Shown here one piece after another: positions 4,345 to 46,785 of a stretch of DNA of 64,000 nucleotides. A program made the position numbers and the translations under genes. Location: positions 1 to 64,000 of the IMG/VR virus record IMGVR_UViG_3300006037_000005, one strand, 5' to 3'. Under the pieces are notes generated by a model that saw nothing but the letters and a program-made list of their open reading frames with translations, was not told the DNA's origin and did no database searches. Position 1 is the first letter of the stretch. Every line of letters starts with the position of its first letter. Source of the stretch: a virus.

Positions 4345-4380
4345 AAAATATTAAAATAATTTTTATATATACTACTTTTA

Positions 4381-26161: not shown

Positions 26162-26954
26162 TGAATTTCACCATAAGTAATTCTTTCAAAGCAAGTTCTT
26201 TAGTCTTTACTATACCGCCTGTAATGGAGAAGGGATCTATACGTTTAACATTATAACTCCAAGTCCAATCACCAAATCTTCCTATGGCTAATACCTGTCC
26301 TATTCTTATATCATTGACAGCGATAAAGAATGCTTGTTCGTATGGTTCTATTTTCTCCTCTGTTATATCTTGTTTGAGCATCATTTTTAAATTTAGTGTT
26401 TATTTCATTATACCTTCCTTGTGATCGTTGCATTTTTGTAAATACAGTTCGTTAAATGCAAGTTTAAACCAACCTCACCCAACCGAATGAAATTAAATCG
26501 TTAATCGAATATTCCATAAAAGGTGTAGCATAACCCTCAGCTCTATATTGGTCTATTCCCATATTTATTTTTGTAGGCCAAATCATATCGTATTTATAAC
26601 CATCTTCATTTAAAGCAATATCATTAATTTCATATTGTTTTCTTATTTTCATTCCTGAATAACCATGTTCTTTATGGGTGTATTCTTTAAAAAACTCCCA
26701 TCCATATGGAATTTTATATTCTGTATCATTTAGAATTGGTTTTAATTCTAAATGATAATTTTCTAATTTCCCTATTAATAAAACGGTTGTAGTGTTAATA
26801 GTAGGTGAATTTGGATATTTTGTTTCTTTAGCGATTATTTGTTCTAAATATTGGCCAAAAAACCTGCATTTAACAGCTAGTTTTGCTTTGGTGCTTTTTC
26901 AACTTTTGTTTCTTTGTTTTTGTTGGATTTTCAAAATGTTATTATATAAATTAT

Positions 26955-26970
26955 TGCAAAAATCGTGCCA
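26955..26970 (-). promoter_or_regulatory. Sigma-54-type promoter 1
   Basis: Minus strand TGGCACGATTTTTGCA matches TGGCAC-N5-TTGC(A/T); TGACA/TGTCA boxes at 26980-27002. Confidence 0.8.
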
Positions 26971-26994
26971 AATTCATTATGACATGACAAATCG

Positions 26995-27270
26995 TCATGT
27001 CATATTATTTGCTTTATTTTCAAACTCATCTAGCAATATTTTAACTTCTTTTGCTCTTTCATAATTTTCTTGGTCGATATAAGTATTGTAAATGCTTTTG
27101 AGATTATAGATGAGTACTTCATCAGTGCGTTTATGGTTCTCCAAAATATATTCTCTTATTTGGTTCGTTGTTTTGCGTTCTATATAAAAATAGAAACACA
27201 TAAAAATTATCTGAATGATCCCAATGATGACCATTAACATTATCATCTGATCCAAATATTGTGGCTTCAT
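26995..27270 (-). CDS. Membrane protein with C-terminal UvrB/C-like motif
   Basis: N-terminal hydrophobic helix; QENYERAKEVK. Confidence 0.55.
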   Translation of the reverse strand: MKPQYLDQMIMLMVIIGIIQIIFMCFYFYIERKTTNQIREYILENHKRTDEVLIYNLKSIYNTYIDQENYERAKEVKILLDEFENKANNMT

Positions 27271-27776
27271 CTATAATAAATTTTAGTTGGTAATGTTGAT
27301 TTAAATTGTTGAAGTGATTTTTCATAAGATACAATATCGGTGTCAATTGCATATTTTGCAAACATAATAACCTCTTCATCACCCAAACTGTGGGTTTCGG
27401 AGTGCTGTTGATAACCTTTTACAAATCCTTGCTTTCTATCTCCTTCTAAATCAAAAGGGTTACTACTTCTGTAGGAATCTATTTCCGTTCCATAATGAGA
27501 TTCCGCTAAATATTCTGCATAATTAACCACTTGTGGACATTGTAGTGATGTGTCGGTGGTAGCTAACACAGGTCTACCAAGATAACCATCTGAAATATGT
27601 TTGGTATATTTAACAATTCTTCTGGAGTTTTCTTCAACCGAATAATACACCTCATCAGTATCCATATATAAATCTTCGTGTGTGTAATAATCCTCACCAT
27701 CAATCGTAATTTTTTCACACATTTCAAATTTATTGGTGTCTATGTGTATTAGTTTATACTGTTTTGTTGTTCCCAT
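27267..27776 (-). CDS. Hypothetical protein (family B-related)
   Basis: VLATTD, GFVKGYQ motifs. Confidence 0.6.
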   Translation of the reverse strand: MGTTKQYKLIHIDTNKFEMCEKITIDGEDYYTHEDLYMDTDEVYYSVEENSRRIVKYTKHISDGYLGRPVLATTDTSLQCPQVVNYAEYLAESHYGTEIDSYRSSNPFDLEGDRKQGFVKGYQQHSETHSLGDEEVIMFAKYAIDTDIVSYEKSLQQFKSTLPTKIYYR

Positions 27777-28330
27777 AATATAATTTCAACGTTATTATTA
27801 ATTTCCAAGGCTCTTGACCATTTACTAACATCATTACAATAACCAATTATTTTATGGTCAGGATTTGTGTGTTTACAAAGTTTTTCGAACCACCCAAAAT
27901 CTGTGAAAGTGGTGGAAAATGTAATATATTTTGCTCTATTGAAATATTCTGAAATTTCAATATCGCTTCTGAGAAAGAAATTGCTGATAACAGTTATATC
28001 TTGGTTTCCGAATCTTTCTTCTAGATATTTTACCCAATTTGGATCTGCTTTCTTGTCATTCTCACAAATGACTATTTCTGAGAATTTATCTATTGGGAAA
28101 TGCACACCATATTTTTCAACAATATTATTGTAATCGAGATTGTGGCAACCAATCAATTTGGCTCTGTACAATAGATCACCTTTATCTACAACAGCGTGTA
28201 GACCACCTTGAACCTCGTTGTGAAACAGAGTTTCTTTCATTCTTTTGTTGAATTCATCTGATATTGGTGAGTCCTTGGTGCAAACCAAAAACCAATTACC
28301 ATGTCCAGCAATTTTTATGTATCTGTTCAT
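27749..28330 (-). CDS. Hypothetical protein
   Basis: 193-aa ORF. Confidence 0.6.
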   Translation of the reverse strand: MNRYIKIAGHGNWFLVCTKDSPISDEFNKRMKETLFHNEVQGGLHAVVDKGDLLYRAKLIGCHNLDYNNIVEKYGVHFPIDKFSEIVICENDKKADPNWVKYLEERFGNQDITVISNFFLRSDIEISEYFNRAKYITFSTTFTDFGWFEKLCKHTNPDHKIIGYCNDVSKWSRALEINNNVEIILWEQQNSIN

Positions 28331-28474
28331 AATTTTCTCTTTGTATTATTTTTAAGATATCTTTTTTCCATTTTTGCTTAGTTATAACAGAAAGGTTTAT
28401 CAATATAATATCTACAAAAATATATTACATCTATTCTAGCCACATATATGCGTATTTTTTCTTTATGTAAATAT

Positions 28475-28939
28475 TTAGGACTTTTGTTGTGGTGCTTTTC
28501 CATTTGGTATTAATTTTAAAGCCTCATACAAGCCATCCTCTAATGCTTCTTCATATATTTCTTTCGCTACACAAATCTTCAATTTTCTTTCACCATAATA
28601 AACAAGAGAAATATATTTTATCCCATCTTGTTTGATACATTCTACATCAATATTATGAATTTCTCTTAACCATTTTTGAAGCAGAGATTGAGTTGACCTT
28701 GTGATATAATGACCAAGATCCATATTGTTATTAGTTCTATTATAATATCTTCTGAAGTAGACCAATGCCTTATCACTATGACCAGTCTCACAATCCTTAG
28801 AATATTCCAAACATGCTTTTTTATAAAAATCCATCTCGATATTGTTGTTATACAGATCAAAGACAACATTACAAGGCAAATTAAATCCTTTTTCTTGAGC
28901 CAATTCAGCAGTCTGAAAATTTATGCGAGTATCTTCCAT
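28475..28939 (-). CDS. Hypothetical protein, paralog family A
   Basis: TAELAQEKGF, TQSLLQKWLRE, YEEALEDGL. Confidence 0.7.
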   Translation of the reverse strand: MEDTRINFQTAELAQEKGFNLPCNVVFDLYNNNIEMDFYKKACLEYSKDCETGHSDKALVYFRRYYNRTNNNMDLGHYITRSTQSLLQKWLREIHNIDVECIKQDGIKYISLVYYGERKLKICVAKEIYEEALEDGLYEALKLIPNGKAPQQKS

Positions 28940-28951
28940 GTTTTTAAAATT

Positions 28952-29239
28952 CTATATCTCCGTTACAAAATCGTCAAAATCACCGTCTCTTGGTTGTATT
29001 CTATCTAAAATATAAAAAGAAGCTACTGCTAGACCATCATCATCTTGACTATCCCAATTACATATCTCTAAATAATAATTTTCTGTCAAAATATATTCTG
29101 TTGGATCAAAATCTGTGTGAACAAATGTTACTCTGGCTAAATATTCGCCAAATCCACCAGAATATTCGAAGGAAGTAGCACCTCCGAATTCGTAAGATAG
29201 TTTTTCCTCTATTTCTTTTTTATTAATGTTGTTTTCCAT
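28952..29239 (-). CDS. Acidic hypothetical protein
   Basis: 95-aa ORF. Confidence 0.55.
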   Translation of the reverse strand: MENNINKKEIEEKLSYEFGGATSFEYSGGFGEYLARVTFVHTDFDPTEYILTENYYLEICNWDSQDDDGLAVASFYILDRIQPRDGDFDDFVTEI

Positions 29240-29289
29240 TATTTTCCTAATATTCTTAAATCAAAAATCGAATTTTACATCAAAAAATC

Positions 29290-29374
29290 CTCTTCCCAAA
29301 TAAGTTTGCTAGACATATCTTCATAAAAGTCTCTTCCCAAATAAGTTTGCTAGACATATCTTCATAAAAGTCTC
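29290..29374. repeat. Exact 41-bp tandem duplication
   Basis: ctcttcccaaataagtttgctagacatatcttcataaaagt at 29290-29330 and 29331-29371. Confidence 0.95.
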
Positions 29375-29556
29375 CACCAGGAAAGAATTCTTTAAATCTA
29401 GTAGGTATCCGTAATCTCTCGTCTTTCGGTGGAATCTTATAATGTTTTTGAGATTGCCTCAATTCCTCTTGTAATTCAAAAATCTCTTTTCCAATTATCT
29501 CTGGTCTTCTAACTGTTTGTGTTGAATCCATATTTTGTTTTTAAATATTATTTTAA

Positions 29557-29835
29557 TTACCATTCAGTGACAACTTTCAATTCTTTCATGAATTCAAGAA
29601 TAGCTTTATCTTTTACACCATCTGTTAATGGCACGTCAGACAATTTTATTTTTGAAGATTTGTGGAGAGATCCTCTGTTGTAAAATGCATCGTTTGTTGC
29701 ATACCAAACTTTTGTTGATTTGGATTTTCTATATTGGCTTGAATATTCTTCCAATATTATACGAAATCCATGTACTGAAAACGAAAAAAACTCTCTTGTT
29801 AAATCCCCTGTTGATATTATTACTTCTATTCTCAT
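29557..29835 (-). CDS. Hypothetical protein, first gene after sigma-54 promoter 2
   Basis: 92-aa ORF; ATG 35 nt downstream of the -12 element. Confidence 0.65.
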   Translation of the reverse strand: MRIEVIISTGDLTREFFSFSVHGFRIILEEYSSQYRKSKSTKVWYATNDAFYNRGSLHKSSKIKLSDVPLTDGVKDKAILEFMKELKVVTEW

Positions 29836-29869
29836 AACTTTGTTTTTAAAATGTTCTTATAATAAATAT

Positions 29870-29885
29870 TGCAAAAATCGTGCCA
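29870..29885 (-). promoter_or_regulatory. Sigma-54-type promoter 2
   Basis: Minus strand TGGCACGATTTTTGCA; five TGTCA boxes at 29895-29934. Confidence 0.85.
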
Positions 29886-29931
29886 AATTTATTTTGTCAT
29901 ATTCTAAATGTCAGTCTGTCATGTCATAGTG

Positions 29932-30561
29932 TCATGGTATGTAAAGTATTGTTGGATTATCCTTGTGGAAATCAATATTATCAAATAAGGCATCTCTTCT
30001 GAATTCCAACAGATTGAATGGTTTCGAAATCAAATGGTAACCATTTTTAGTCTCGATTATTGCTATATCTTTCTTACCAACTGGCTCTACACTTTCTATA
30101 TGCTTTTTGATAATTTCAACAAATTCTAGATTCTTTTCATCGATATCAATTATCCATTTTTTGTTAGATTCATTTGAATAAGTACCACAAACACTTTCAT
30201 AAGCCTTTCTTATTGACTTAAAATCTTTATTCATGATCTGATCTGTAATTTTTCTCAAGGTGTGGAAACCAATTTTCTCGAAAGATCTTTTATTAAGATT
30301 TATGCATGCTCTTGCATTATGAAAATCGCAAAGAGATTTTATTTCTGGGAATTTTAGATTCAGATATTCAATAGAACTTACATAGTAGGTTTTTATACAA
30401 GCAGAATTTGAACCAAGATCTTTGTGTTCTTTCTTGCGTTTTATGATTTGAAGATGGTAAAAATCATCTTCTGATTCGAAATTCAACAAATCTGATATTT
30501 GTTCTAAATTGTTTACCATATTTTCTATATTACAAAGTGGTTGTATTGTTTCATAAATCAA
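29932..30561 (-). CDS. Hypothetical protein, possible AEP/PrimPol-like fold
   Basis: WIIDID and ETKNGYHLI resemble AEP motifs I and II; fold assignment is inference. Confidence 0.5.
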   Translation of the reverse strand: MIYETIQPLCNIENMVNNLEQISDLLNFESEDDFYHLQIIKRKKEHKDLGSNSACIKTYYVSSIEYLNLKFPEIKSLCDFHNARACINLNKRSFEKIGFHTLRKITDQIMNKDFKSIRKAYESVCGTYSNESNKKWIIDIDEKNLEFVEIIKKHIESVEPVGKKDIAIIETKNGYHLISKPFNLLEFRRDALFDNIDFHKDNPTILYIP

Positions 30562-30570
30562 TCAAAAACA

Positions 30571-30604
30571 GTTTTGGCATCACATATATATGTGATGCCA
30601 AAAC
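30571..30604. terminator. Perfect 34-bp palindrome, probable terminator
   Basis: GTTTTGGCATCACATATATATGTGATGCCAAAAC, followed by a T-run on the minus strand. Confidence 0.7.
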
Positions 30605-30638
30605 TCTATAAATTATTTCAAGATGCCTATTTAGATAT

Positions 30639-31040
30639 CTATGAATCCAAAGCCTTTAATTGCTCATCTATTTCAGCTAAAGACAATTTTCCAATTTCTT
30701 CTGTCTGTTTTTTGGCTCTAAGAGCAAGTAATTCCTGTCTTTTTTCTTCTTTGTTTGCTTTTTCTTTTTGTTTTTTCTCGTTTTCTTCTATTTCATCGAG
30801 TAAAGAAGAAATTATATTTAAACGAAGTTCAACCAGTTTTTGTTCTGAAGATTTTGATTCAGTCTGTCTTCTTGTTGATTTACCAAAAGAATCTTTCTGA
30901 ATAGTAAGATTCTCTTCATAAGAGATTAATTCTTCCTTTAGAGATTGTGAGATTCTCATAGAATATAATTGCTCTATGGATATCTGACCTCTAAAATCAA
31001 ATCTTAATTGCTGACGTACAGCTTGTTCGAAATTATTCAT
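30639..31040 (-). CDS. Coiled-coil phage protein, partner of the upstream large gene
   Basis: FEQAVRQQLRF..RGQISIEQLY N-terminus and a charged helical C-terminus. Confidence 0.7.
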   Translation of the reverse strand: MNNFEQAVRQQLRFDFRGQISIEQLYSMRISQSLKEELISYEENLTIQKDSFGKSTRRQTESKSSEQKLVELRLNIISSLLDEIEENEKKQKEKANKEEKRQELLALRAKKQTEEIGKLSLAEIDEQLKALDS

Positions 31041-31058
31041 TTTATTGGAAATTTATTG

Positions 31059-33164
31059 TTAAAAATTTATTTTCAAAATTCTTTGGTGAGATCCTTTAAC
31101 TTTTACTATTAAAGAATCTCTCACCGTACAATTGAATCCTATATCAGATAATTGTTTATCTGATGGTTCTACCATTTTGTAATTACCAAGCATATCGATG
31201 GCTTTTCTACTACCCATCAATTCACTATTTAATTGGTCAATATGGAATGCTCTCATTGGATCTTGAGACTTGCAATCTTGTATCATAAAGAAATATTCTT
31301 TAGTTCCAATATTGTTGTCACCCCAATGGTTTGGTGAAGAACATACCAAATTAACTTTATGGAATTGATTTGTTTCTATATTCCACAGATTTTTACTAGA
31401 ATTTGTGGTGCATGGCAATTTGTGTTCTATGTTAAATTTACCGTTTTTGAGTGTTATGTCTGCCACTGGTATTTTACCAACCACTGGCTTATTATATTCA
31501 TAGCAGAACAATTCACCTTCGAACTCTATTTCAAATTTGAAACCTTTCGACGAATTGCGACCACTGAATTGATTGACATAAAAAGAATAAACACCATCCT
31601 TCATTTCATTGATACTTCTGAAATATATGTTCTCAACAGCCAATTTTCCTTTTGGGTTTGTGTTATCTAAATCAAGTTGTCCTCCACAATTAGAAAAAAG
31701 ATTACTAGAATCTTTTCTAAAACCAGTATTGTATCCAATAAATTGATTGGTTGATTGTTTGCACCATACATCAAGATCAGAAGAATCAGAACCAGATTCA
31801 TTCCATATCATTGATGCTCTTAGTACACCGTCTATGTTACCACCAGCGGTTTTTACAGCCTCTTTTATCATAGATTTTCCACTGAGATTACCATTGTAGG
31901 TCCAACTGAAAGTGTTATCCCATTTAAACAGATTTTTGGCTGTTTTATTTTTCGCTGTAAACAATGATACTAGATTACCTTCAAATCTATTCTCCATGAA
32001 GACCTCAATAGAGTTTGCCACAGGAAGAATGTCTGATAAAAATTTGTCTATATGGATTTCTTCCACTTTGTCAAATTCTGAACGTTTGTGTCTATTGTTT
32101 GATGATGTCACCACACCTGCCTTGCCAAATAATCCAACTGGTTTTTCTTTTGAAGCATCAATATTGGAATGTTTAATCTCTGAAACATCTATATCGTCTA
32201 TATTAGCAAATATTCTTTCAAAAGAATCTCCATAACCAAGATCTGTGATGGTTTTCTCTGCCTCCTCTATCATAGATTTTGTTACTGGTGATTTTGCTTT
32301 ATTGTAGTTGGCCGGATCAACCCTTATATTGAAGTCTTTGCAAACTTTATTAAGTTCTTTACCTTCAACCAATTCTATACAAGTAGTACCTATGAGTTCA
32401 TTAGCAAAACGGGCAAAAGGTGTCGATTTAAAATTGTTCCACAACCAATTACCTTGCTGATTTACAGATATTTTATTGAACTCTTTTTTGAGTTTTATTA
32501 CATCTAATACTTTGTTTAGGTACATATCTCCTTTCAACAAAGATCCTTGTTGTATCAAATCTCTCACAAGTTCCAAAGTATCAAGAGGAATCCCCATTGT
32601 TTTTCCGAACAACTGTCTTGTGGTGTTTAATTCACCAATGATAGATTCACAACTTTCTCTTTTGAAATTTATGAAATTGTTCGGTATGAACACATGGAAA
32701 TGGTTAAAGGTATAAGAATAATCTATCTTTTTACCTTTGGCTTCCTCCTCTGTTCTATAAATTTTAAATGTTTTCTCTTTACCCAAACAATAGACACCAG
32801 TATTTGTCTTATGTAGATCGATTGGAGATTCTACATAAACTGAATCTATTTCTGAATTTTTTATTCTTTCACGAACATTAATTATTGAATTTTTATATTC
32901 ACAATCTGAAATATCAAAATCAAACATTGTTACGATCTCATTGTCAACTATGGCTACAATATTAGCATATCTTTCAAAGAAATGCCTATCATTGTCACAA
33001 TTGTGTACAGAATTCACTCTCCATAAAGGATGAATATCAAAAGAATTCATGTAAATTTCCCACAAATACCCCCCAGGAACATCAGTCTTAAACAGATTCC
33101 CTGTCTTTGTGAGTACGTGGAATTGCTCCTGCATTAGTCTATTTAACTCTAAAAAATTGCTCAT
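31059..33164 (-). CDS. Large phage protein with a YfaP/DUF2135-like beta domain
   Basis: SDLDVW, GQLDLDNT, VENIYF, GVYSFYVNQF motifs; 701 aa. Confidence 0.6.
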   Translation of the reverse strand: MSNFLELNRLMQEQFHVLTKTGNLFKTDVPGGYLWEIYMNSFDIHPLWRVNSVHNCDNDRHFFERYANIVAIVDNEIVTMFDFDISDCEYKNSIINVRERIKNSEIDSVYVESPIDLHKTNTGVYCLGKEKTFKIYRTEEEAKGKKIDYSYTFNHFHVFIPNNFINFKRESCESIIGELNTTRQLFGKTMGIPLDTLELVRDLIQQGSLLKGDMYLNKVLDVIKLKKEFNKISVNQQGNWLWNNFKSTPFARFANELIGTTCIELVEGKELNKVCKDFNIRVDPANYNKAKSPVTKSMIEEAEKTITDLGYGDSFERIFANIDDIDVSEIKHSNIDASKEKPVGLFGKAGVVTSSNNRHKRSEFDKVEEIHIDKFLSDILPVANSIEVFMENRFEGNLVSLFTAKNKTAKNLFKWDNTFSWTYNGNLSGKSMIKEAVKTAGGNIDGVLRASMIWNESGSDSSDLDVWCKQSTNQFIGYNTGFRKDSSNLFSNCGGQLDLDNTNPKGKLAVENIYFRSINEMKDGVYSFYVNQFSGRNSSKGFKFEIEFEGELFCYEYNKPVVGKIPVADITLKNGKFNIEHKLPCTTNSSKNLWNIETNQFHKVNLVCSSPNHWGDNNIGTKEYFFMIQDCKSQDPMRAFHIDQLNSELMGSRKAIDMLGNYKMVEPSDKQLSDIGFNCTVRDSLIVKVKGSHQRILKINF

Positions 33165-33616
33165 CTTTCATCTCTTTTTATATTTTATTTTGTTATGATT
33201 CTCTGGTTTCCAAATTTACCCCAGTGGATATTTGATGTGTACCAAACAAAGAGAAATAGGGCGAGAAGAATCTTGGTGGTTTTATAATTTTGTTATATTT
33301 TAAAATATAACAAACAGTGTCGATTATAGAGAATATAGCGTAGAATTAATTGAAAATATATCAGTTAATACATATATGTATCCATAATTCTGTGTGTGGT
33401 TTTAAAAATCTCTTCGGAGATCACAAACGAAGTGACCATTATCTTACCTTTTAGAATTTTGATCACAGAATCGTCTTGATATATTTCATCTCCTCTTAAT
33501 AATCTTTTATATTCGATAAGATAAAAGAAACCGTTCTGTTCTTTATTGAAAAATTTCGTTATGGAAGTTCTTTTGTTTTTAGATTTTATGGTTCTAGTGA
33601 TTGCTTCCATTGTTTT

Positions 33617-34477
33617 TCAAATTTTGTGTAAATTTAAAAATTCTGAACTCTTTAGCCATTTCTTATGTTCAAGACTATACACTTCTTTCTGACTTTCTAT
33701 AAGCGGTACACAATGGGTAGATATAAAAATTTGACAATCATTTGAAACAGCTTTATTTAAAACCTCTATTAATTTAAACTGATTCCTTGGTGACAGAGCC
33801 GATTCTGGTTCATCTAGAAATATTATACAGTCTTGTGCTTTCGACAAAACACCAACCGTGAAATCAACGAGGGTTTCTCCATGTGATCTAAAATGTGACA
33901 TCAAAGCATTGCCCACACCATATCCCTTTGATCCCCCACCTGGCGTTGTATAATTATCAATGCTTGTTGTTCTTGGATTCATTTTCTCTGTATCAAAATA
34001 GAAAGTGTTTATTTCCATTTTGGAGTATTCATCCTTTATCTTAACATCTAGAAATTCTTGGTGTTTTTGCAATCCTAATAACAGTGTTGATTTACCACAA
34101 CCTTGATCTCCAACAATGAGATTTATACCAGATTTTGGTTTTATCACGAATTTTTTATTGAAACATATACCTTTGGATACTGTTATTGATTCAATGTATG
34201 ATACACCAATAGAATCTTCCCTTGATAATCCAGATTCTATTCTTGATATTTTTTCGTCATAAGTTTCTTTCATAATCACAAATTTGACATTATTTTTTAA
34301 AAATTCTTCTCTTACCCATCTTGGTAAATTCTCTTTCGATCCAGATTTTATTTGGATCTGGAGTTGAGATAATGTTTTTCTATATCTAGCACAATGATCC
34401 CAAACAATTTGGTGGGCTTTTTGTGTTTTTGTCATTGGTTTATCTGACCACCATGTTCCGCAACTCGATTTACACAT
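33617..34477 (-). CDS. ABC/AAA-type ATPase (start uncertain)
   Basis: IVGDQGCGKST Walker A, SHGE signature, IFLDEPESALS Walker B, ISTH. Confidence 0.85.
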   Translation of the reverse strand: MCKSSCGTWWSDKPMTKTQKAHQIVWDHCARYRKTLSQLQIQIKSGSKENLPRWVREEFLKNNVKFVIMKETYDEKISRIESGLSREDSIGVSYIESITVSKGICFNKKFVIKPKSGINLIVGDQGCGKSTLLLGLQKHQEFLDVKIKDEYSKMEINTFYFDTEKMNPRTTSIDNYTTPGGGSKGYGVGNALMSHFRSHGETLVDFTVGVLSKAQDCIIFLDEPESALSPRNQFKLIEVLNKAVSNDCQIFISTHCVPLIESQKEVYSLEHKKWLKSSEFLNLHKI

Positions 34478-35031
34478 AACGTAAGCAATAATTGCACCAG
34501 ATCCATCTTCATATTGTAATAGATGAAAATCTTATTATTTCACAAGTTATTAGATTTTCATCTATTATACATTCAACCAATGCACCTATTCTGTATGGAT
34601 TGGGATTATTATTGTGTTGTGGTATTTCTATATTACCAAAAATGGGTTCTTAAATTTGGTAATTTTGTATGTTTTAGATGGTTTATTTTTGAATATAAAT
34701 TCTTCTTTCTCTTTGTCTGTCAATCCAGAAGAGACAATATCATGTATCAATTGATCAATGTGGCTTGTTTTATCTCTTGATACAACAATTAACATCTTGG
34801 TGTTACCCTCTTCTTTCATCTGATGCTCCATAATTTTGTATTAATTTTTAACAATATTATATTTTGACTTCAAGATCTTGATATCTCCATTTACATATTG
34901 GAAAATAACCATGTGTGCCATTTTGATTTTTGATATGGTTTCTAGATCAAAACAATCAATATTAACATCTTGTATTTGATTTTGTACATCTGTTAAATCA
35001 GCGGTTTCGAGTATTAAAATATCTGAATTTT

Positions 35032-35301
35032 TCATTTATCATGAAGATTTTTAAATTGTAATTTTTCATGATAGGATTTCCTCTTCTCGGTATTTGCCTG
35101 TCTATTGAATTTCCTTCTATAAAGTTCAATAACACTATATTTTGGTAAGACAGCTTCAACCATTGATTTTACGGCAGAACCAAGGGATCTGTGTTCTGAA
35201 TATTCTTCATTAAGCCTGTCCAAAACAGTAAATCCAAATAATCCAGACTGTTTTTTAACAATAAATCTTTTCCTTATTTTTCTTAACAATTTGACTTTCA
35301 T
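35032..35301 (-). CDS. Basic hypothetical protein
   Basis: Start set at ATG 35301 (MKVKLL) because the longer call overlaps the tRNA. Confidence 0.6.
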   Translation of the reverse strand: MKVKLLRKIRKRFIVKKQSGLFGFTVLDRLNEEYSEHRSLGSAVKSMVEAVLPKYSVIELYRRKFNRQANTEKRKSYHEKLQFKNLHDK

Positions 35302-35315
35302 TTTATCTCTTGTTG

Positions 35316-35389
35316 TGGGGCTTGTAGGATTCGAACCTACCACCTACTGATTATGAGTCAGTTGCTCTAACCTAATGAGCTAAAACCCC
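35316..35389 (-). tRNA. tRNA with CAU anticodon, Ile2 (lysidine) type
   Basis: GGGGTTT acceptor, TAGCTCA..GGTTAGAGCA D arm, ACTGA-CTCATAA-TCAGT anticodon arm, GTAGG-TTCGAAT-CCTAC T arm, A73; CCA not encoded. Confidence 0.9.
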
Positions 35390-35565
35390 CTATTTTAAAA
35401 TGTATTTCTTGCTTGTCACATTATCTATATAATAAGCATTAAGTACAGTTTCATCAATTGAATCCAAATATGGCTTCAATTCAGCCATTGATTTGAAATC
35501 TTCTTTTATATCAGAATTTTTAGAGAACCAACCCTTCGATGGGAATTTTATGAATATTGTGTATC

Positions 35566-36003
35566 TCATACCCAACCCTTTTCTCGGTTTCTCCAGAATT
35601 TACCAAATTTACTATACATACAATAACACAAAAATTGTTTCTCTATTGTTATGGTATCTAAAGTTCTTATAAATATATTGAAATTATCAGCCCATGAGGC
35701 AAATCCTGCAACATTTTTGTTATTCATGATCCCTGATATATCCTCAAATCTTGGTATCCATTTTATAAGTTCTTTCTGTTCTTCAAGAACAAAGATTTTG
35801 ATTTCATCACAATCCTCTGTTAAAAAAGTACCAATGAAATTATTTGAATCATTTGATAAAGAATAACTTGTTACAATATAGACTTCATCTGACCCATTAA
35901 GCCCAATATTTATGAATTTATCACCAAGATAGTATCTTGTTTTCAGATCCTGTATTTCCTGTGCCTTTAAGCACATTTCAATATATTCTTTGTCAACAGC
36001 CAT
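35566..36003 (-). CDS. Hypothetical protein
   Basis: 145-aa ORF (EYIEMC.KA.EIQ, WIPR). Confidence 0.6.
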   Translation of the reverse strand: MAVDKEYIEMCLKAQEIQDLKTRYYLGDKFINIGLNGSDEVYIVTSYSLSNDSNNFIGTFLTEDCDEIKIFVLEEQKELIKWIPRFEDISGIMNNKNVAGFASWADNFNIFIRTLDTITIEKQFLCYCMYSKFGKFWRNREKGWV

Positions 36004-36185
36004 ATATTTTTATCAATTTAAACAACCGAGGTTACAATTTTTGTTGTAAATATTTGATTTTAGACCAATAAAATAATGGAGTTGTGATTCTGCAGAATCA
36101 AGTATGATGGCTTTCCTTTCTTCTGATGCTTTTGTATCTGAAATTATATTTAAAATTTCATTTTCCTGTTCCTTTATTCTTGCCT

Positions 36186-36692: not shown

Positions 36693-36694
36693 TT

Positions 36695-37225: not shown

Positions 37226-38074
37226 CGCAATATATTTTGTTATGTACCATTTTTAGGCATTCTGATAGATAATACAAAAATTTGATTTATTCATTCTAGA
37301 TGTGAGAATACCATATTATAAATTTCCATTTAAAATAATATATTGAAAATCCACAATTCCCATAATACATACTGTACATGAGAAAAAACAGAACACTAAA
37401 AGTATCACCATGATAAGGAAATCTTTTAGTAATCTATTCATTATTATAGATCTTTGTGACATTATCATTTATCTCTATTGATCTTCTAACAAGGCTTAGT
37501 ATTGATTCTTTTGAGATTATGATATGTTTCAAAATTTGTGTGTGGTAAGAACCATTATGCTCTCTAATAATTGGCATTTTTGTTCTATTTCCATTACCAC
37601 CAATTTTATGTTTTTTCATTATTTTATATTATTTAAATCATAAGCATTCAGAATTGAGTTTTCATCGATTGAGGCATCAAGATAACTTCCTCCGTTTCCA
37701 GATTTATATATCTTGGCTTTTTTACTAGCTTGTACTAAAGCTTCTCGGGTATGTGATTTTGTGAACACAACCAAAGCCTCCTTAAAATCCTCTTTATCCA
37801 TGAGATACTCTGAATCACCTTCTTCAAAACTACATAAGATAGAGTATCTATCAAACAGTTCATCTATTGTTGGTATTTTGTCCATCTTGCTTTGCTTTAT
37901 GATATATCACAAAAATTAATATAAATATTGACAAAAATAGAAATATCATCAGAATGGGCAACCATAAAATACAATAAATGGTTGTTGTGATAATTTCTTG
38001 GATGTCATACCCACATTTGAATTCATTAAACAGAAATCCTGCTATAAATGAATATATAGCAACTATTAAAATTA

Positions 38075-40442: not shown

Positions 40443-42056
40443 TTAATCAGAATCTTTGTTTATGTATACATAACCCTCAATATCCTTTAGCATATCTAAG
40501 TCTATTGGTTGATCACCATAATATTTTTTGACAAGTTTACAGATATTTTTAATAGATCTACCTGTAATGTTTTTGAAATGTTCTGTTATCAATGGTAATT
40601 GACCATTTTTTATCTCAATATCATAATTATCCAATAAAACATTCCATAACTTTGTGAGTTCTTCATCTTTGGGAACACCATATTCAACAATTGCTGTTGC
40701 TCTTGATAAAATCGCATCATCAACCGAACTTGCTCTGTTGGTGGTCATAAACAATAGACCATTGTAATATTCAAGTGTTCTAAGAAATGTACAGACTACA
40801 GCATTTCTGTGCAGATCTTGATCTCTTGATTGTATATAAACATCGGCTTCATCAATAAGTAAGACAGCACCCCATCTTGATGCTCTTTTTAGAACTGCTT
40901 CAAGATTTTTCTCAAGATCATCTATCTTGATACCAAGCTGATCTGATTGTACTTTATATAGAGGTTTTTCCATTATTTCAGAATAGATTTCTGCAGATAA
41001 TGTTTTACCAGTACCAGGTATACCTTTACAGATGATAATAGTTCCACCTGTTTTACCAGACACAATATCTTCGAAATTATCTTTTGTGTTCAAAGTTAAT
41101 ATCTCTATTAACTTATTGATGTTTGGTGGTAAAACAAGTTTTTCTTTTAACTTTGGGTTATAGACATATTCTTCAAGAGATTCAGTGTGTATCCAAAAAT
41201 CTCTGTGTTTGCTCAAAGAAAACATATAAACAAAAGGATGAGTTGGAACTATATGATCTACATCTGTCTCAATGTCTTTATCCCAAAATACTGAATTAAC
41301 ATAATTGTTCGGTATTTTGTTTGTGATAGTATCCATATTGTTAACAAAATTCATATAAGAACCATCACCAACTGTTTTGTTTATACCACCCCATCTATCA
41401 TATTGTATTATAATTTTGGATTTATATTGTTTACCTATGGATTCAACTATATTCTTATATTTTCCATATTGATTAAAGAAAATCTTTCGGATTTCGGGGT
41501 TTTCTTTATAATAACCTTTTGATTCCAAAATTTCTGATACTGTTTTACCAGATACAATATCAGAAGAATAAAATGTGATATCAGTCTTTCTCTCCTCCAC
41601 GCAAGCAATATGTCTCAATGATATTTGAACATATGCTGGACTTTCTTTTTCCGCTGGTTTGTATATTATGCTATTTACATAATAAGGAAGTGGTATGTCT
41701 ACATCATTTATGTTTTGGATTTTATATAGATAATAGTCCAAAGAATCATTTTTAATATATTGTCTTAACGCATCTCTTAACGCATCAAGTCTTTTGGGTA
41801 CTACCTTATCTACATTTGATTTAATGGACTTCAACATTGATATCTGTTGTAATATTGAATTGAATCCAGATTCGGTAGCAACATTGGCTTTTGCCATTTC
41901 CTGCAATGCATCCATAAAATCATCATCGAGTTTATCAGAATTGATAGATACTACATTGCTATCATTGTTCCATGATATACAGCCATCTAAATATCTTGAT
42001 TGAAATCCTTTTGATTTCAATTCTTTTATAGTCTTTATTGTCAATTTTAATTCCAT
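40443..42056 (-). CDS. AAA+ ATPase with long N-terminal domain
   Basis: GIPGTGKT, VLLIDEAD, FLRTLEYY, MTTNR, DDAILSR. Confidence 0.9.
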   Translation of the reverse strand: MELKLTIKTIKELKSKGFQSRYLDGCISWNNDSNVVSINSDKLDDDFMDALQEMAKANVATESGFNSILQQISMLKSIKSNVDKVVPKRLDALRDALRQYIKNDSLDYYLYKIQNINDVDIPLPYYVNSIIYKPAEKESPAYVQISLRHIACVEERKTDITFYSSDIVSGKTVSEILESKGYYKENPEIRKIFFNQYGKYKNIVESIGKQYKSKIIIQYDRWGGINKTVGDGSYMNFVNNMDTITNKIPNNYVNSVFWDKDIETDVDHIVPTHPFVYMFSLSKHRDFWIHTESLEEYVYNPKLKEKLVLPPNINKLIEILTLNTKDNFEDIVSGKTGGTIIICKGIPGTGKTLSAEIYSEIMEKPLYKVQSDQLGIKIDDLEKNLEAVLKRASRWGAVLLIDEADVYIQSRDQDLHRNAVVCTFLRTLEYYNGLLFMTTNRASSVDDAILSRATAIVEYGVPKDEELTKLWNVLLDNYDIEIKNGQLPLITEHFKNITGRSIKNICKLVKKYYGDQPIDLDMLKDIEGYVYINKDSD

Positions 42057-42062
42057 CTTTAT

Positions 42063-42536
42063 TTAAATTATTCTTTTAGTTTTACAATTGAATACTGGTG
42101 CTGTATTTTTAATATTGGTCCAAACACCAGTGAATTCACCATTTCTGAAATATAATAGTTGAATTCTCGGATAATAATTTCCAGTGATATGTGTATAATA
42201 TAGTCTGCCTCTGTACATAACAATGAAACAATGGGGGATATTATTAACAGTACGAGTTGGAATATTTCTACCTACGATATATTTTTCTTTTTCATCACCG
42301 AAATTATCAAGTTTTTTATATTCTACATCCTCAAAAACCCATTTATATTTGTTGTTTCTGAACCATTTATTGAGTTCTTCTGAATATTGATTCTTCTTTA
42401 TCCTTATTGGATTGGAAAAATTGAAACTTTCTTCAGATAAGATTTCAAGGTTGTAGCTTGATTTTAAAACGAAACCGCATCGATTTTTGATGACAACACC
42501 AATGTCTGTAATGAAATATTCCACTCTGTTTTCCAT
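42063..42536 (-). CDS. Hypothetical protein, first gene after sigma-54 promoter 3
   Basis: 157-aa ORF. Confidence 0.65.
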   Translation of the reverse strand: MENRVEYFITDIGVVIKNRCGFVLKSSYNLEILSEESFNFSNPIRIKKNQYSEELNKWFRNNKYKWVFEDVEYKKLDNFGDEKEKYIVGRNIPTRTVNNIPHCFIVMYRGRLYYTHITGNYYPRIQLLYFRNGEFTGVWTNIKNTAPVFNCKTKRII

Positions 42537-42569
42537 AATTTTATTTTAAAATGTTCCTATAACAAGTAT

Positions 42570-42585
42570 AGCAAAAACCGTGCCA
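42570..42585 (-). promoter_or_regulatory. Sigma-54-type promoter 3
   Basis: Minus strand TGGCACGGTTTTTGCT; TGACA at 42604-42608. Confidence 0.8.
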
Positions 42586-42610
42586 TATCAAAATTTGGTA
42601 TTATGACATA

Positions 42611-44752
42611 TCATATGTTTATTTTAATATTATCTTTTTTAATAGAGTGTATATTTGCACAATTGTGGCATATATAAAACCCATAAGTTATCCCGTTCGG
42701 GCGTTCCTCAGATAATGGATCATACAATCTAAGATATGGGTGTATCTGATCAAGAAGACTATTTCCACTATATGCTTTATGTCCATAATATTTGTAGTTT
42801 TGATAATATGGTGGTAATTGTTTCCTATCAGTAAGATCAAGAAGCCACATAAAACCAGCATAATGCCTTATATTGATTTGGTATGTATGTTTGGCTTTAT
42901 TCTTTCCACAACACTCACATATATCAGCATCCATAAAGTTGTCTGATTTTCCAATACCAACGCCTCTATAAATATCCACACCTTCTTTTTTAGTTCTTCT
43001 ATTTATGATTATGGTCTCGCAATAATCACCATTAATACCATGTGGTGATATTAAATTTGTTACTGATTTGCATATCGAATTAAGTATCTTGTTGTATACA
43101 GTTTTTGAAGAAAATATCATTTTTTCGAATTCTTTTGTATCAGCATAGCTTCTGTTCTTTAGTTGCAATAGCAGTGGTTCTATTGTGTCTACAAATCTGT
43201 TATCTAAAATCAACCATTCAGACAATGATTCAAGATTATCATTTGTGGCAAGCCAATTGGCATCATACATGGGGTTAGACATAATTTCATTATACGATGC
43301 TTTTTCAAGAGATTTATAATTTTTGTTTAAATCGAGACTATTGAGTGTTTCCATAATCTCGTTGAATCTATTTTTATTTTTATCGTTCCAATATTCCATC
43401 TTTGTATTATCATTAAGTAGGATGTTTTCACCAGACAACAATTTGTTGTTAATAAATTTCTTTGCTGTGGTCATTCCTGTTGATATATTGTTATTATCTA
43501 TCGATAAGAAATTTATGATTTCATTTGATAATAACAATATGAAAGCTTTGTTGCTATCGGATAGGGAATTTATATCATACTTAATAAAAATTGGATTTAT
43601 AAAGATAAATTCATCTTTATCCCATCTTACTATAACCTCCCCATTTTTCTTTATTGTACCATAATTTGGTGTATCACTATCAAAGAAATATCTTTCTTTC
43701 CTATCAACATGTATTGATGAGAAATCAACACCTAAAGATGTCAGATATTCTGAGATTTTCTTTTTTGTTATAATTTCAGATGTCTTATGATAAGTCCCAC
43801 TTTTGTGGTTTTTTCTATATAAATCAAATTCTTCCCTAACTTCTTTTAAGATATCATATTTTATAATCTTATTCTTTATTATTTGATTTTGTTGTATTGC
43901 CAATTCTTCTATATTTTCAAATATTTCATATGGCAAATCACAATTTTCTATTTTATCATCGTAATTTCTCCATATTGAAGCCCTCTCCATCCTAAGATGT
44001 GGTTGTCTAGGATTATCAAAATGTATTTGGTCTGATACTATCCATATTGTATCACCTTTATGAATAGTGAACACGAAACTCGATAGTATCGGATTTATAT
44101 TTGACAATTTACCAAATAATGTTATAAATATTTTATCAGAATCGGCTTTTTTAATGAATTCTTTTTGTTTAGACAAAAAATCGAGCCAGCTGTTTATATC
44201 AGATGATATACCTATCTCTGGATAGAAAACATATTTGTCTGATATAAATATTTTGTCTTGACCACCATGGTGCAAATATGTTTTAAAGAATTGTTTAGAA
44301 AAAACCATTTTATTCAATTTTAGAATATCTTGTGGTTTAAACGAAAAATTATCATCAAAATTGAACCCCATGGATTTTATCTGATTCATCCTTGGTATAA
44401 AATAAAACAATTCCCATTCACTATACAAATCTATTATTCCAGAGATTGTGTCTATTAATAGTTTGACCGATTCTATACTTTGTTTTGTGAAATCTTTTTT
44501 ATGTGGTAGGTTTATATAATCTGATAGACAATTATAATAAGAATTGGTTTTAAAGCAAATAGAATGGAGCTTTATTATGCAGATATCCGAATCAAATTCA
44601 TAAGAATTTTTAATATCAAACACTGTTTTTTTGATATTATCAGATGGTAAGATTCTCACAGATTTTGATTTATCTTCAGGAAAAGCATCTGTAAAATCAA
44701 ACTCAAATACCTGTTCTAGATTAGAAACAATCGATATTATTTTATCTTTCAT
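42611..44752 (-). CDS. Large hypothetical protein with C-terminal Cys motifs
   Basis: 713 aa; CECCG and CHNC near the C-terminus. Confidence 0.7.
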   Translation of the reverse strand: MKDKIISIVSNLEQVFEFDFTDAFPEDKSKSVRILPSDNIKKTVFDIKNSYEFDSDICIIKLHSICFKTNSYYNCLSDYINLPHKKDFTKQSIESVKLLIDTISGIIDLYSEWELFYFIPRMNQIKSMGFNFDDNFSFKPQDILKLNKMVFSKQFFKTYLHHGGQDKIFISDKYVFYPEIGISSDINSWLDFLSKQKEFIKKADSDKIFITLFGKLSNINPILSSFVFTIHKGDTIWIVSDQIHFDNPRQPHLRMERASIWRNYDDKIENCDLPYEIFENIEELAIQQNQIIKNKIIKYDILKEVREEFDLYRKNHKSGTYHKTSEIITKKKISEYLTSLGVDFSSIHVDRKERYFFDSDTPNYGTIKKNGEVIVRWDKDEFIFINPIFIKYDINSLSDSNKAFILLLSNEIINFLSIDNNNISTGMTTAKKFINNKLLSGENILLNDNTKMEYWNDKNKNRFNEIMETLNSLDLNKNYKSLEKASYNEIMSNPMYDANWLATNDNLESLSEWLILDNRFVDTIEPLLLQLKNRSYADTKEFEKMIFSSKTVYNKILNSICKSVTNLISPHGINGDYCETIIINRRTKKEGVDIYRGVGIGKSDNFMDADICECCGKNKAKHTYQINIRHYAGFMWLLDLTDRKQLPPYYQNYKYYGHKAYSGNSLLDQIHPYLRLYDPLSEERPNGITYGFYICHNCANIHSIKKDNIKINI

Positions 44753-45177
44753 ATTTTTATTTTGTAGATGTCCCCTTCGAGTTCCTCTATCTGTGTTTTT
44801 GTTTTGTTGAAGTATGATTGTTTCACATCATGTTGATATTTCATTCTAAAAATATCAGATTTTTTGTAAAAATCTTCATTAATTCTTTCTATCAGAAATT
44901 CCACTATACCATCGAATTTACACAGATTTTCAAAATAGGCATCATTGTTTGGAATCTCTGTTTGCATCTCTGGCACAGATTTGTATGTTCTTTCCTTTAG
45001 TACTTTCATGTTCCAAATGAAAGATGTCGATAATATACCCAAAAGATATGAATCTTCTTTTGAAATTTTATTAATATTTTCCTTATGATATTGAGAAAAA
45101 TAATAGATTAAGATGTCTATTTCTTGCGAACAAAATGCAAGTAGAGGTTTTATGGTATCTTTGATCCTATTCTCCAT
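44749..45177 (-). CDS. Hypothetical protein
   Basis: 142-aa ORF. Confidence 0.55.
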   Translation of the reverse strand: MENRIKDTIKPLLAFCSQEIDILIYYFSQYHKENINKISKEDSYLLGILSTSFIWNMKVLKERTYKSVPEMQTEIPNNDAYFENLCKFDGIVEFLIERINEDFYKKSDIFRMKYQHDVKQSYFNKTKTQIEELEGDIYKIKI

Positions 45178-45181
45178 ATTG

Positions 45182-45505
45182 TTATGGTATTATTATTTCT
45201 CCAAACACTGATTCTGCAAATTCTGGTGTCATAGAATGCATAAACAATTTTAATGCATCTCTTTTAATTTCATAGCCTTCAGATTTAAATGGTTCTGTTT
45301 CATTTACCCTATTTATGAAAGAAATAGATTTTAGTTCCATCTCTTTAAATACTGCAATAACGGATTCATTAGTTGTTGCTTTTCTTTGTGAGATTATATC
45401 TTTTGCCTCAATAACCATACCACTCAAAGCTATCAACAATCTTTGCTCTGCAGATTTATCTTGATCTTCCTCCTGATAAATTCTAAAATATTCTCTGGCT
45501 TTCAA
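45182..45505 (-). CDS. Hypothetical protein
   Basis: 107-aa ORF. Confidence 0.6.
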   Translation of the reverse strand: MKAREYFRIYQEEDQDKSAEQRLLIALSGMVIEAKDIISQRKATTNESVIAVFKEMELKSISFINRVNETEPFKSEGYEIKRDALKLFMHSMTPEFAESVFGEIIIP

Positions 45506-45785
45506 TTTATATGTATTAAAGATTGTATGATATTTTCGTCTTTATTGAACATCATGCCTGTGATAAATTTATCACAGGCATTTTCAACTTTATTCCAGTC
45601 AATGAATTTTGTTGGCATATTACACAAATGTTTATAACCAAGATTAACATCTTCTCTAGATCCTATAATTTCATATGTGTTATCTTTATGCATTGCTATC
45701 ACAAATAAACCATATCCGAAGAAAATTGGTGTATCCTCTTTTTTGGGATCGAATGCTACTAATATAAAAAGATTTTTCATATCTA

Positions 45786-46253
45786 TTAAAAACTTGGATC
45801 CCAGTATTCTTCTTGCATACCAAAAACTATATTTATCTTTGGATAGCTAGTTACAATTTTAGTAATACCATCTATTAATTTCAAGAAACCATTTTCATCA
45901 AAATGATCTGGATTATAAACATTTTCTTTTCCACAGAATTGTATAGATCTTGAGATTTGTCTCCAACAGCCTTGTCTGAATACCAATTCCACAGACTGTT
46001 CTTCAAGTTCCGAATAATCATATTGTTGACCACTATCAGTTAAACCAAGATTATCTATTCTTTTTGCTCTACATCTTCTGATGGTACATTTGGTTTGGTC
46101 TTTTGAAACTTCAACAACTTGATAAGCATGTCTATCTGTCCAAAATAGAACTGTTGCACCTTTACCAACTTCTGGCTTTGCTTGAGACCCAGACATCATA
46201 TGGTTCATTAAACTTCCTGTTTGTGAACCCAATTTTAGCATTGTATTTTTCAT
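45786..46253 (-). CDS. Phage hypothetical protein, first gene after sigma-54 promoter 4
   Basis: PEVGKGAT..WTDRHAY..V and C-terminal EEYWDPSF. Confidence 0.7.
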   Translation of the reverse strand: MKNTMLKLGSQTGSLMNHMMSGSQAKPEVGKGATVLFWTDRHAYQVVEVSKDQTKCTIRRCRAKRIDNLGLTDSGQQYDYSELEEQSVELVFRQGCWRQISRSIQFCGKENVYNPDHFDENGFLKLIDGITKIVTSYPKINIVFGMQEEYWDPSF

Positions 46254-46289
46254 AATTTTTTATTTTTAAAATGTTCTTATATAAATTAT

Positions 46290-46305
46290 TGCAAAAATCG
46301 TGCCA
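46290..46305 (-). promoter_or_regulatory. Sigma-54-type promoter 4
   Basis: Minus strand TGGCACGATTTTTGCA; TGACA boxes at 46326, 46331, 46348, 46356, 46361. Confidence 0.85.
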
Positions 46306-46311
46306 AATTTT

Positions 46312-46611
46312 TCAGATGGATTTTGTGACATGACAATTTGGCAGACATGACACCGTGACATGACAATTTTTAATATGATTATAAAGTTTCTTTGTTCCAA
46401 CAAGACCCCATTGTTTATGTTTTGATATCAAAGCATTAAAGACAAGAAGTTTATCAATGGAATTCTGATCTTTTTGTTTCATTTCGCAATATTTGAAGAC
46501 TGGTGTTCTGTATAGACCATGTATCAATTCAAAATTATCTTTGATTAAAGTTATGTGTTCTTCTGTTAATTCAGATAGCTGTTTTTGGATTTCTTTTGTT
46601 GAATTTGCCAT
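46312..46611 (-). CDS. Hypothetical protein, first gene after sigma-54 promoter 5
   Basis: 99-aa ORF whose 3' end runs through the TGACA boxes of promoter 4. Confidence 0.55.
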   Translation of the reverse strand: MANSTKEIQKQLSELTEEHITLIKDNFELIHGLYRTPVFKYCEMKQKDQNSIDKLLVFNALISKHKQWGLVGTKKLYNHIKNCHVTVSCLPNCHVTKSI

Positions 46612-46649
46612 AATTTTTGATTTTAAAAATGTTCTTATATAAAAATTAT

Positions 46650-46665
46650 TACAAAAATCGTACCA
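46650..46665 (-). promoter_or_regulatory. Sigma-54-type promoter 5 (variant)
   Basis: Minus strand TGGTACGATTTTTGTA with the same leader; TGACA at 46689 and 46697. Confidence 0.7.
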
Positions 46666-46785
46666 AAATTTAGGTGTGCTTCATCGGATGACAATCTGAC
46701 ATGGTTTGTTTCAGTACAGAAGATAGTAGTTCTGAAATAACCTTATTAAACGAGATAGTTTTGATAAATTCTGTATGCTATGGTA

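Follow-up and report, generated by a model that had tools for sequence, protein, structure and literature searches.

The 64 kb stretch of DNA analysed here (the window) forms the first 64 kb of the virus record IMGVR_UViG_3300006037_000005, which comprises 126,598 bp, is rated ∼60% complete and belongs to a myovirus; genes for terminase, tail sheath, prohead protease, capsid protein and SbcC-like nuclease are present. Its minus strand carries five copies of a cassette in which a −24/−12 type core is preceded by TGACA/TGTCA boxes and followed by a shared leader. These cassettes, together with three further sites elsewhere in the record, are the subject of this study. TGGCAC-N5-TTGC(A/T) is the consensus of RpoN (sigma-54), whose holoenzyme requires an AAA+ enhancer-binding protein bound upstream. 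The cores, the box arrays and the stretches behind them are compiled in Table 1.

Sigma-54-type cores, upstream boxes and the genes behind them

Exact matches to TGGYACGRTTTTTGYW were found at five positions of the window (26955, 29870, 42570, 46290 and 46650), all on the minus strand, and in none of 100 shuffled windows, which reproduced the sites and sequences of an earlier annotation of this DNA (the original prediction). That prediction had called for a genome-wide scan, and the whole record gave seven strict matches, again exclusively on the minus strand, as compared with none on the forward strand and none with a reversed-pattern control. The two strict sites beyond the window lie at 93698 and 108387 (both minus strand), and an eighth, degenerate site at 99727–99742 (minus strand) reads TGGAACTATTTTTGTA (TGGAAC...TTGTA) and is preceded by a cluster of three boxes. 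Six of the eight sites agree with the extended RpoN consensus TGGCACG-N4-TTGCW at every specified position, as expected from the claim that the cores fit sigma-54, and the two degenerate cores read TGGTAC..TTGTA and TGGAAC..TTGTA. The spacing from TGG to TTTTTG was constant in all eight, including the most diverged site with a different downstream sequence.

The five window sites can be aligned over ∼55 nt in the order TT, 16-nt core, ATA, a TATA(T)AAG-like element 8–10 nt past the core, AACATTTT, an A-rich run and ATG, and the conserved block is therefore longer than a sigma-54 core alone. The AT-rich stretch and the AACATTTT leader, which had been described after each core, were recovered in five out of five. 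Each of the eight sites falls between genes, ahead of open reading frames (ORFs) and on their coding strand. The distance from the 3′ end of the core to the start codon is 34, 33, 36, 38, 26, 55 and 67 nt at seven of them, the first four values corresponding to the ∼35–40 nt previously given for four window sites, and behind site 26955 the first ORF of 45 aa or more begins after 302 nt. This location, co-oriented with the genes, agrees with the proposal that the promoters drive gene blocks, and it is likely, with more confidence than for the full scheme proposed below, that at least eight gene blocks of the phage start from sigma-54-type promoters.

TGACA/TGTCA boxes are depleted in the record as a whole (257 versus 373 ± 18 in shuffles), and clusters of at least three boxes number seven versus 1.07 expected. 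Six of these seven clusters are placed directly upstream of a core, five times of a strict and once of a weak one. In the window, the 5′ ends of the boxes lie 14–60 nt upstream of TGG, and across the record 14–94 nt; the counts at sites 26955, 29870, 42570, 46290 and 46650 are 3, 5, 1, 5 and 2, respectively, in accordance with the one to five boxes per core noted earlier. Seven of the eight sites have arrays of two to six boxes, at which activator binding is predicted, and two of the phage arrays are perfect palindromes. The array of site 4 extends into the 3′-terminal part of the 99-aa ORF upstream. The motif, its arrangement and its non-random distribution are direct observations.

Table 1. 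Position and content of the five cassettes in the window (numbering from its first nucleotide).
Feature	Position	Strand	Content	Basis
Site 1 core	26955..26970	−	TGGCACGATTTTTGCA	pattern match
Site 1 box array	26978..27004	−	perfect inverted repeat, two double boxes, 5-nt centre, 14–32 nt upstream of TGG	
Site 1 downstream stretch	26653..26954	−	contains TATATAAT and the AACATTTT leader; no ORF of at least 45 aa	
Site 2 core	29870..29885	−	TGGCACGATTTTTGCA	pattern match
Site 2 box array	29895..29934	−	five TGACA boxes, 5- and 8-nt spacing	
Site 2 leader and seven small ORFs	26995..29869	−	92, 83, 95, 154, 193, 169 and 91 aa; family assigned to none	
Site 3 core	42570..42585	−	TGGCACGGTTTTTGCT	pattern match
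Site 3 single TGTCA box	42604..42608	−	23 nt upstream of TGG; weakest enhancer in the set	
Site 3 leader, 157-aa ORF and 537-aa AAA+ ATPase	40443..42569	−		profile matches
Site 4 core	46290..46305	−	TGGCACGATTTTTGCA	pattern match
Site 4 box array	46326..46365	−	five TGTCA boxes, including three double boxes	
Site 4 leader and five ORFs	42611..46289	−	155, 92, 78, 142 and 713 aa; family assigned to none	
Site 5 degenerate core	46650..46665	−	TGGTACGATTTTTGTA	pattern match
Site 5 boxes	46689..46701	−	two TGTCA, N3 spacing	
Site 5 leader and 99-aa ORF	46312..46649	−		ORF call

The first genes behind the sites had no family in Pfam, PHROGs or NCBIfam, and the protein atlas returned viral hypothetical proteins only. 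The 537-aa protein behind site 3 is a classical-clade AAA+ ATPase with an Msp1/p97-like ATPase domain. In the block of site 4, the look-alikes of the 155-aa protein were likewise restricted to viral hypothetical proteins, and the 713-aa protein had no match in the PDB. For the 499-aa protein behind site 93698 (92172–93671, minus strand), neither Pfam nor NCBIfam gave a match at E ≤ 0.01. Behind the largest palindromic array, that of site 108387, the first gene encodes 128 aa (107945–108331, minus strand) with a weak C-terminal helix-turn-helix (HTH); it scored 26.6 bits with HTH_Cbp1 and 24.9 bits with DUF6115, and is a possible DNA-binding regulator of the phage. The ∼300 nt behind site 1 contain a 26-aa ORF only and include a 14-bp hairpin. 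This stretch folds better than all of 200 shuffled versions (z = −3.68), had no match in Rfam, and may form a long, structured leader or be transcribed from the sigma-54 promoter as a small RNA. The small-ORF region also harbours genes for tRNA-Met (CAT) and tRNA-Cys (GCA) (window 35315–35389 and 50836–50912, minus strand), and an Rfam scan of the window gave one tRNA as its sole match.

The probable host and the chaperone promoters of Bacteroidota

Relatives of the terminase large subunit (TerL) were all distant (<60% identity), and the top named ones, at 26–30% identity, include those of Chryseobacterium phages, of Tenacibaculum phages PTm1/PTm5/pT24 and of Flavobacterium phage MaF61. The phage is T4-like in a distant sense only; its nearest named TerL relatives are jumbo myoviruses of Bacteroidota at ∼30% identity. 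The leaders of the phage lack a Shine-Dalgarno sequence, and the closest NCBIfam families of its sigma factor of the extracytoplasmic function (ECF) type include Bacteroidota-type ones. Because of these TerL relatives, leaders and sigma families, the host of this large uncultured phage is probably a member of the Bacteroidota. Megablast with 7 kb of the phage found no match among named phages, and neither the AAA+ protein nor the capsid protein located a relative in viral contigs. Eleven viral-contig matches to the exact 19-mer had varied GC contents and no box arrays and were rejected as kin. Three sequencing runs were compared with the record as contigs. In an RNA-library run, the contigs amounted to a share of 0.05, with 15 of 30 bins thinly covered, and represented relatives at 85–95% identity, from which no conclusion on expression or habitat is drawn; the best-matching DNA sample may be the source sample of the record and is not independent. 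In MaF61, the nearest named phage, an adenylosuccinate synthetase is annotated beside the terminase. If the phage DNA carried 2-aminoadenine, which is speculation, its promoters would melt less readily, and opening driven by ATP might be of help.

The original prediction had raised the question of whether sigma-54 promoters of the host carry the same boxes. Such boxes stand before sigma-54-type cores of groES, dnaK, htpG and grpE in genomes of Flavobacteriales and Bacteroidales. For groES, 30 loci from 31 evenly drawn Flavobacteriales genomes were chosen without using the motif, and the 260 nt upstream were compared with control windows of the same loci. The mean number of boxes was 3.5 upstream of groES versus 0.43 in the controls; at least three boxes were present in 25 of the 30 regions (3 of 297 control windows), N3-spaced box pairs in 24 (1 of 297) and the core TGGCA[CT]-N5-nTG[AC] in 19 (0 of 297). 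Upstream of dnaK in Flavobacteriales, at least three boxes were found in 24/30 regions versus 4/462 control windows, and the core in 18/30 versus 1/462. When 101 genomes were scanned for two boxes plus core, 39 matches were obtained in 33 of them, as against one in the reversed control. The first downstream ORF, present in 28 of 30 loci inspected, encoded DnaK (13), HtpG (5), GroES (3) or GrpE (1) in 22 of the 28 cases, and SecA (2), a subtilase, LemA, ParD and a protein with no family (one each) in the remainder; part of these promoters are identical to those in the groES and dnaK counts.

The host boxes are located ∼15–97 nt upstream of the core, as compared with 14–94 nt in the phage, and one sampled genome (G021) has the exact core of the phage at three promoters. 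When a weight matrix was built from 52 host chaperone cores, six of the eight phage sites ranked in the top 14 of the phage genome. These host parallels, like the motif itself, are directly observed. In the Flavobacteriales, the groES array TGTCA-N3-TGTCA-N7–9-TGACA is also a hairpin between A and T runs, the spacer of which shows compensatory changes (gta/tac, gtg/cac, gg/cc), and the array may also terminate transcription of the upstream gene.

This picture can be set beside published data on Bacteroidota. Flavobacterium psychrophilum has one sigma-54 and three PF00158 proteins, and its −24/−12 promoters, derived from 5′-end data, drive groES-groEL, lon, dnaK, grpE-dnaJ and htpG, one such promoter having been confirmed by mutagenesis (PMC9723704). 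Sigma-54 promoters show an enrichment before chaperone genes across the Bacteroidota, which is strongest in Flavobacteriia (PMC12316311). These chaperone promoters (e.g. motif SM4 of F. psychrophilum; PMC9723704, PMC12316311) and those of the phage are alike in the −24/−12 core with boxes within ∼100 nt upstream, and further in N3-spaced and inverted box pairs and in short leaders without a Shine-Dalgarno sequence. In the literature searched, neither the TGACA element nor its activator was found described, and no Bacteroidota phage was reported to use the element; the full promoter list of PMC9723704 may bear on it.

Each of the 31 sampled Flavobacteriales genomes has one rpoN, though the phage's own host may differ, and each has between one and six activator genes. 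In 26 of the 31, an activator gene is located 2.5–3.2 kb upstream of groES on the same strand, and the conserved neighbourhood consists of a MiaB-like gene, a sensor-less sigma-54 activator and lptE, followed by groES-groEL. The groES-linked activator of one genome (G001) comprises 413 aa, in which an AAA+ domain beginning at residue 14 is accompanied by lid, linker and a C-terminal HTH_8; no sensor domain was found in it. This is the architecture of PspF, which implies control in trans by a partner protein. The groES-linked activator is like PspF of the Escherichia coli PspF/PspA pair in having AAA+ and HTH without an N-terminal sensor domain. Unlike in E. coli, its partner is only surmised, and a link to chaperone titration is likewise our own suggestion. 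On the evidence of this synteny, the groES-linked host activator is the leading candidate for the reader of the TGACA/TGTCA boxes. Of the two activators considered in the original prediction, one from the host stress response and one encoded by the phage, the former gains comparative support from the boxes at sigma-54-type cores of chaperone genes.

Alternative readings of the cassettes

Several observations weigh against a copied chaperone-regulon enhancer or against sigma-54 itself. When a collection of genomes from 185,579 species was scanned for a double box, a 9–39-nt gap and the core, 27 matches were obtained over many phyla, which is near the chance number of roughly 34, a hand estimate assuming equal base frequencies. 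Within this set, only the Bacteroidota subset stood out, and it counts in favour of the host parallel: all six of its matches had at least three boxes, versus 6 of the 21 others (Fisher p = 0.003), and behind them lie groES-groEL (in two genomes), dnaK, and genes for a universal stress protein, for SMODS and for a transposase. The phage sites scored 11–15 bits with the host matrix, as compared with a host median of 21.7, and some unboxed matches in coding regions scored alike, the support from the matrix being moderate. The −12 element is TTGA or GTGA in most sampled hosts and the canonical TTGC in the phage. Adjacent double boxes (5-nt period), frequent in the phage, occur in none of the 30 host groES regions, and site 42570 has one box only. 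Unlike the chaperone promoters, the phage cassettes are near-identical repeats serving small phage genes without family, and no chaperone or protease gene was recognized behind them, the genes there being those for one AAA+ ATPase and for proteins without family. To the same side belong the incompleteness of the record, as a phage-encoded activator could sit in the missing part, and the TATA element found at a constant offset past TGGCAC at seven of the eight sites, with a spacing that permits a −35/−10 reading. Our reading of the comparison is that the cassettes would work like promoters of the host chaperone regulon but are not members of that regulon.

The adjacent double boxes and the missing ∼40% bear on the possibility that the sites are sigma-54 promoters whose boxes are bound by an activator of the phage, or by a phage protein modulating the host activator, the host resemblance being partial or convergent. 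Compared with the cores of the sampled hosts, those of the phage are closer to the canonical form, and the weak HTH behind the largest palindromic array would offer a candidate. However, Sigma54_activat (PF00158) was not detected above the cut-off in the 126.6 kb of the record, the sole match, at 12–17 bits, being an SMC/ABC-like ATPase, nor in five other core-bearing phage contigs, one of which is rated complete. Neither Sigma54_DBD (PF04552) nor a GAFTGA-like motif in any of the six frames was present in the record, so that the absence of rpoN and of a GAFTGA-bearing enhancer-binding protein gene, first noted for the window, holds across the whole record by domain and motif searches. Moreover, the host chaperone genes share the 5-mer, the N3 spacing and the position relative to the core. 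We consider a reader of the boxes encoded by the phage unlikely, and a host activator remains the preferred one.

The TATA element requires separate consideration. The most enriched word upstream of the phage genes was TATATA, with 29 occurrences versus 4.5 expected and a presence in 23 of 77 upstream regions. Unaccompanied by TGGCAC, TATATAA(A) is found 13–67 nt upstream of the genes for TerL, the protease and others (e.g. window 4364–4371, 11303–11337 and 16508–16515). By analogy with the T4 late promoter element, TATAAATA, it is a candidate for a separate late-type promoter element, perhaps read by a phage sigma factor. Since TATATAA(A) also precedes genes without TGGCAC, the cassettes may carry two signals.

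A possible reader is the ECF-type sigma factor of the phage (148 aa; 83093–83539, minus strand, outside the window), which matched TIGR02937 with 58.5 bits and Sigma70_r2 with 44.6 bits. Its frame stops at a TGA part-way into the region-4 match, and a second, doubtful region-2 match was seen in a 339-aa MORN-repeat protein (76034–77053 of the record). This factor might read TGGCAC as −35 and the TATA-like element 16–18 nt further on as −10, with a merely coincidental likeness to sigma-54. GG.AC resembles the GGAAC-type −35 motifs of ECF factors, and site 99727 does read TGGAAC; the prominence of TATATA upstream of phage genes points the same way. However, the TTTTTG block, which would fall into the spacer, is conserved in 8/8 sites at the exact −12 position, the motif satisfies all 12 specified positions of the RpoN consensus, and core and boxes also occur at host chaperone genes, where no phage sigma is at work. 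Site 99727 has no TATA at that offset, TATATAA stands before structural genes without any TGGCAC, and the region upstream of the sigma gene itself lacks the motif. In addition, CGT forms the −10 box of the flavobacterial ECF motif (PMC9723704). Reading by the ECF factor is thus improbable in our view.

Still less can be said for ordinary housekeeping promoters, be they of the sigma-70-like form TTGGCA-N17-TATATA or of the Bacteroidota sigma-A type. Four sites permit a reading as TTGGCA plus TATATA with 17 nt between them, and one site (29886) was flagged by a consensus scan. That scan, however, gave 137 sigma-70-type sites in total versus 136.1 ± 11.4 in shuffles, i.e. no enrichment, and only one of the five loci was among the best 60 of the 137. 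The −10 candidates lack the final T or would need spacers of 19–21 nt, and the cassettes do not contain TAnnTTTG, the −7 motif of Bacteroidota, which is present in few phage upstream regions. We regard this explanation as the least credible of all.

Finally, the cassettes might mainly be modules of recombination and shuffling, comparable to the promoter/stem-loop (PeSL) cassettes of T4-type phages, or decoys for an activator, rather than working promoters. In contigs of a second DNA sample, the upstream edge of the core ending at 29885 is joined elsewhere (29887 to 31045 and 29887 to 37438), contigs assembled from what is probably the source sample end at the repeats (26945–26971 and 46280–46305), and the whole ∼55-nt cassette is repeated with its leader. 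In this respect the cassettes resemble mosaic boundaries between related strains, as PeSLs do, an impression drawn from contigs only and from the edge of one cassette. The published PeSLs are reported to be likewise repeated promoter cassettes bordering variable blocks of small ORFs (PMC2839356, PMC4122927). Unlike PeSLs, which combine sigma-70-type early promoters with terminator stem-loops, the phage cassettes carry sigma-54 cores and enhancer arrays, and no enrichment of sigma-70-type promoters was found. PeSLs are also promoters, so promoter function is compatible with shuffling, and the strict orientation, the place before start codons and the fit to the consensus speak for function; an action as decoys is pure speculation. 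That shuffling or decoy action is the main role of the cassettes is accordingly very improbable.

A proposed chaperone-regulon enhancer in phage transcription

We consider it probable that the eight sites are enhancer-dependent sigma-54 promoters with a copied chaperone-regulon enhancer that are fired by a host activator under folding stress. The following scheme is inferred as regards its dependence on sigma-54, the activator involved, the nature of the stress signal and the timing. Host RNA polymerase with sigma-54 would bind to TGGCACG-N4-TTGC(A/T) and form a closed complex. This would be opened at the expense of ATP by an AAA+ activator of the host sitting on the TGACA/TGTCA arrays 14–94 nt upstream. 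Transcription would start ∼12 nt past the GC, within TATATAAG, and the leaders would therefore be short, A-rich and without a Shine-Dalgarno sequence. The phage arrays would be copies of the upstream element of the Bacteroidota chaperone genes groES-groEL, dnaK, htpG and grpE, and the likeliest activator would therefore be the sensor-less PspF-type protein encoded beside groES in the host. The blocks would then fire on a signal of protein-folding stress, probably caused by mass synthesis of phage proteins, with titration of chaperones by these proteins as the probable signal. Put briefly, the protein-stress alarm of the host probably switches on phage genes.

To a further proposal we give appreciably less credence and put it forward only tentatively. 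Folding stress could serve as a clock, in that the occupation of chaperones by accumulating phage proteins frees the PspF-type activator, which then fires the host chaperone genes together with at least eight cassettes, and the phage may also compete for the activator through the many arrays on its replicating genomes. Such a reading would name a cis-element (the TGACA/TGTCA arrays) and a candidate regulator (the groES-adjacent activator) of the heat-shock response in Bacteroidota.

Use of sigma-54 by a phage is by itself not new. Transcription of the Pseudomonas phage YuA was reportedly shown to depend on host sigma-54 by Ceyssens et al. in 2008. Such use is described in print as rare. In later papers, YuA is called strictly dependent on host sigma-54 (PMC5053324), and one sigma-54-like YuA promoter, P015, has been mapped (PMC10914365). 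Like YuA, the phage described here would be a virulent phage using host sigma-54 for part of its programme. Unlike YuA, with one named promoter and a host from another phylum, it has eight cassettes, each with an enhancer array for which a particular host regulon can be named as the origin, and this copied chaperone-regulon enhancer is the new part.

The genomes of three named Bacteroidota phages, MaF61, PTm1 and MA9V-2, gave five matches to a loose core pattern, as many as the reversed control, so the motif is not general to such phages; no PF00158 was found in these three genomes. A scan of viral contigs for boxes plus core, run without a control, returned 57 sites in 56 stretches, a total that is left uninterpreted, only box counts, families and cores per record being used: 34 sites had at least three boxes, and several families were recurrent. 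In a 116-kb jumbo-phage fragment (G107), 11 strict cores lie on one strand within 17.3 kb (control 0), the near-identical cores of its contig C1 (1286–17295) standing ∼35–50 nt before small ORFs with 0–7 boxes per site, and a 354-kb record (G110) has five cores. No activator gene was found in the five core-bearing viral records checked, these two included. TerL of the phage had no match in G106–G110, an empty result that carries no weight for that search. The same strategy appears to be in use in unrelated large phages, such as the fragment with 11 cores in 17 kb. A recurrent element was also noted in many viral contigs of 37–49% GC, in which the palindrome TGTCA-N8-TGACA is followed after ∼25 nt by TGGCACG-N4-TTGC and then by a GC-rich, apparently structured sequence with no ORF start (loci L165, L180, L181, L185, L191, L192, L199, L203, L205, L209–L211, L213 and L219). 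It may be a sigma-54-driven RNA.

Textbook phage programmes rest on the take-over of sigma-70-type transcription. In the scheme proposed here, a large myovirus places at least eight gene blocks under promoters of a kind that cannot fire without an ATP-driven activator, and the upstream sites point to the sigma-54 chaperone regulon, which replaces sigma-32 in Bacteroidota. If this is true, the phage senses the proteostasis alarm of its host. Host biology would gain a testable candidate enhancer element and activator for the heat-shock response of Bacteroidota, and the cassettes would provide compact, probably stress-inducible promoters for these genetically difficult bacteria.

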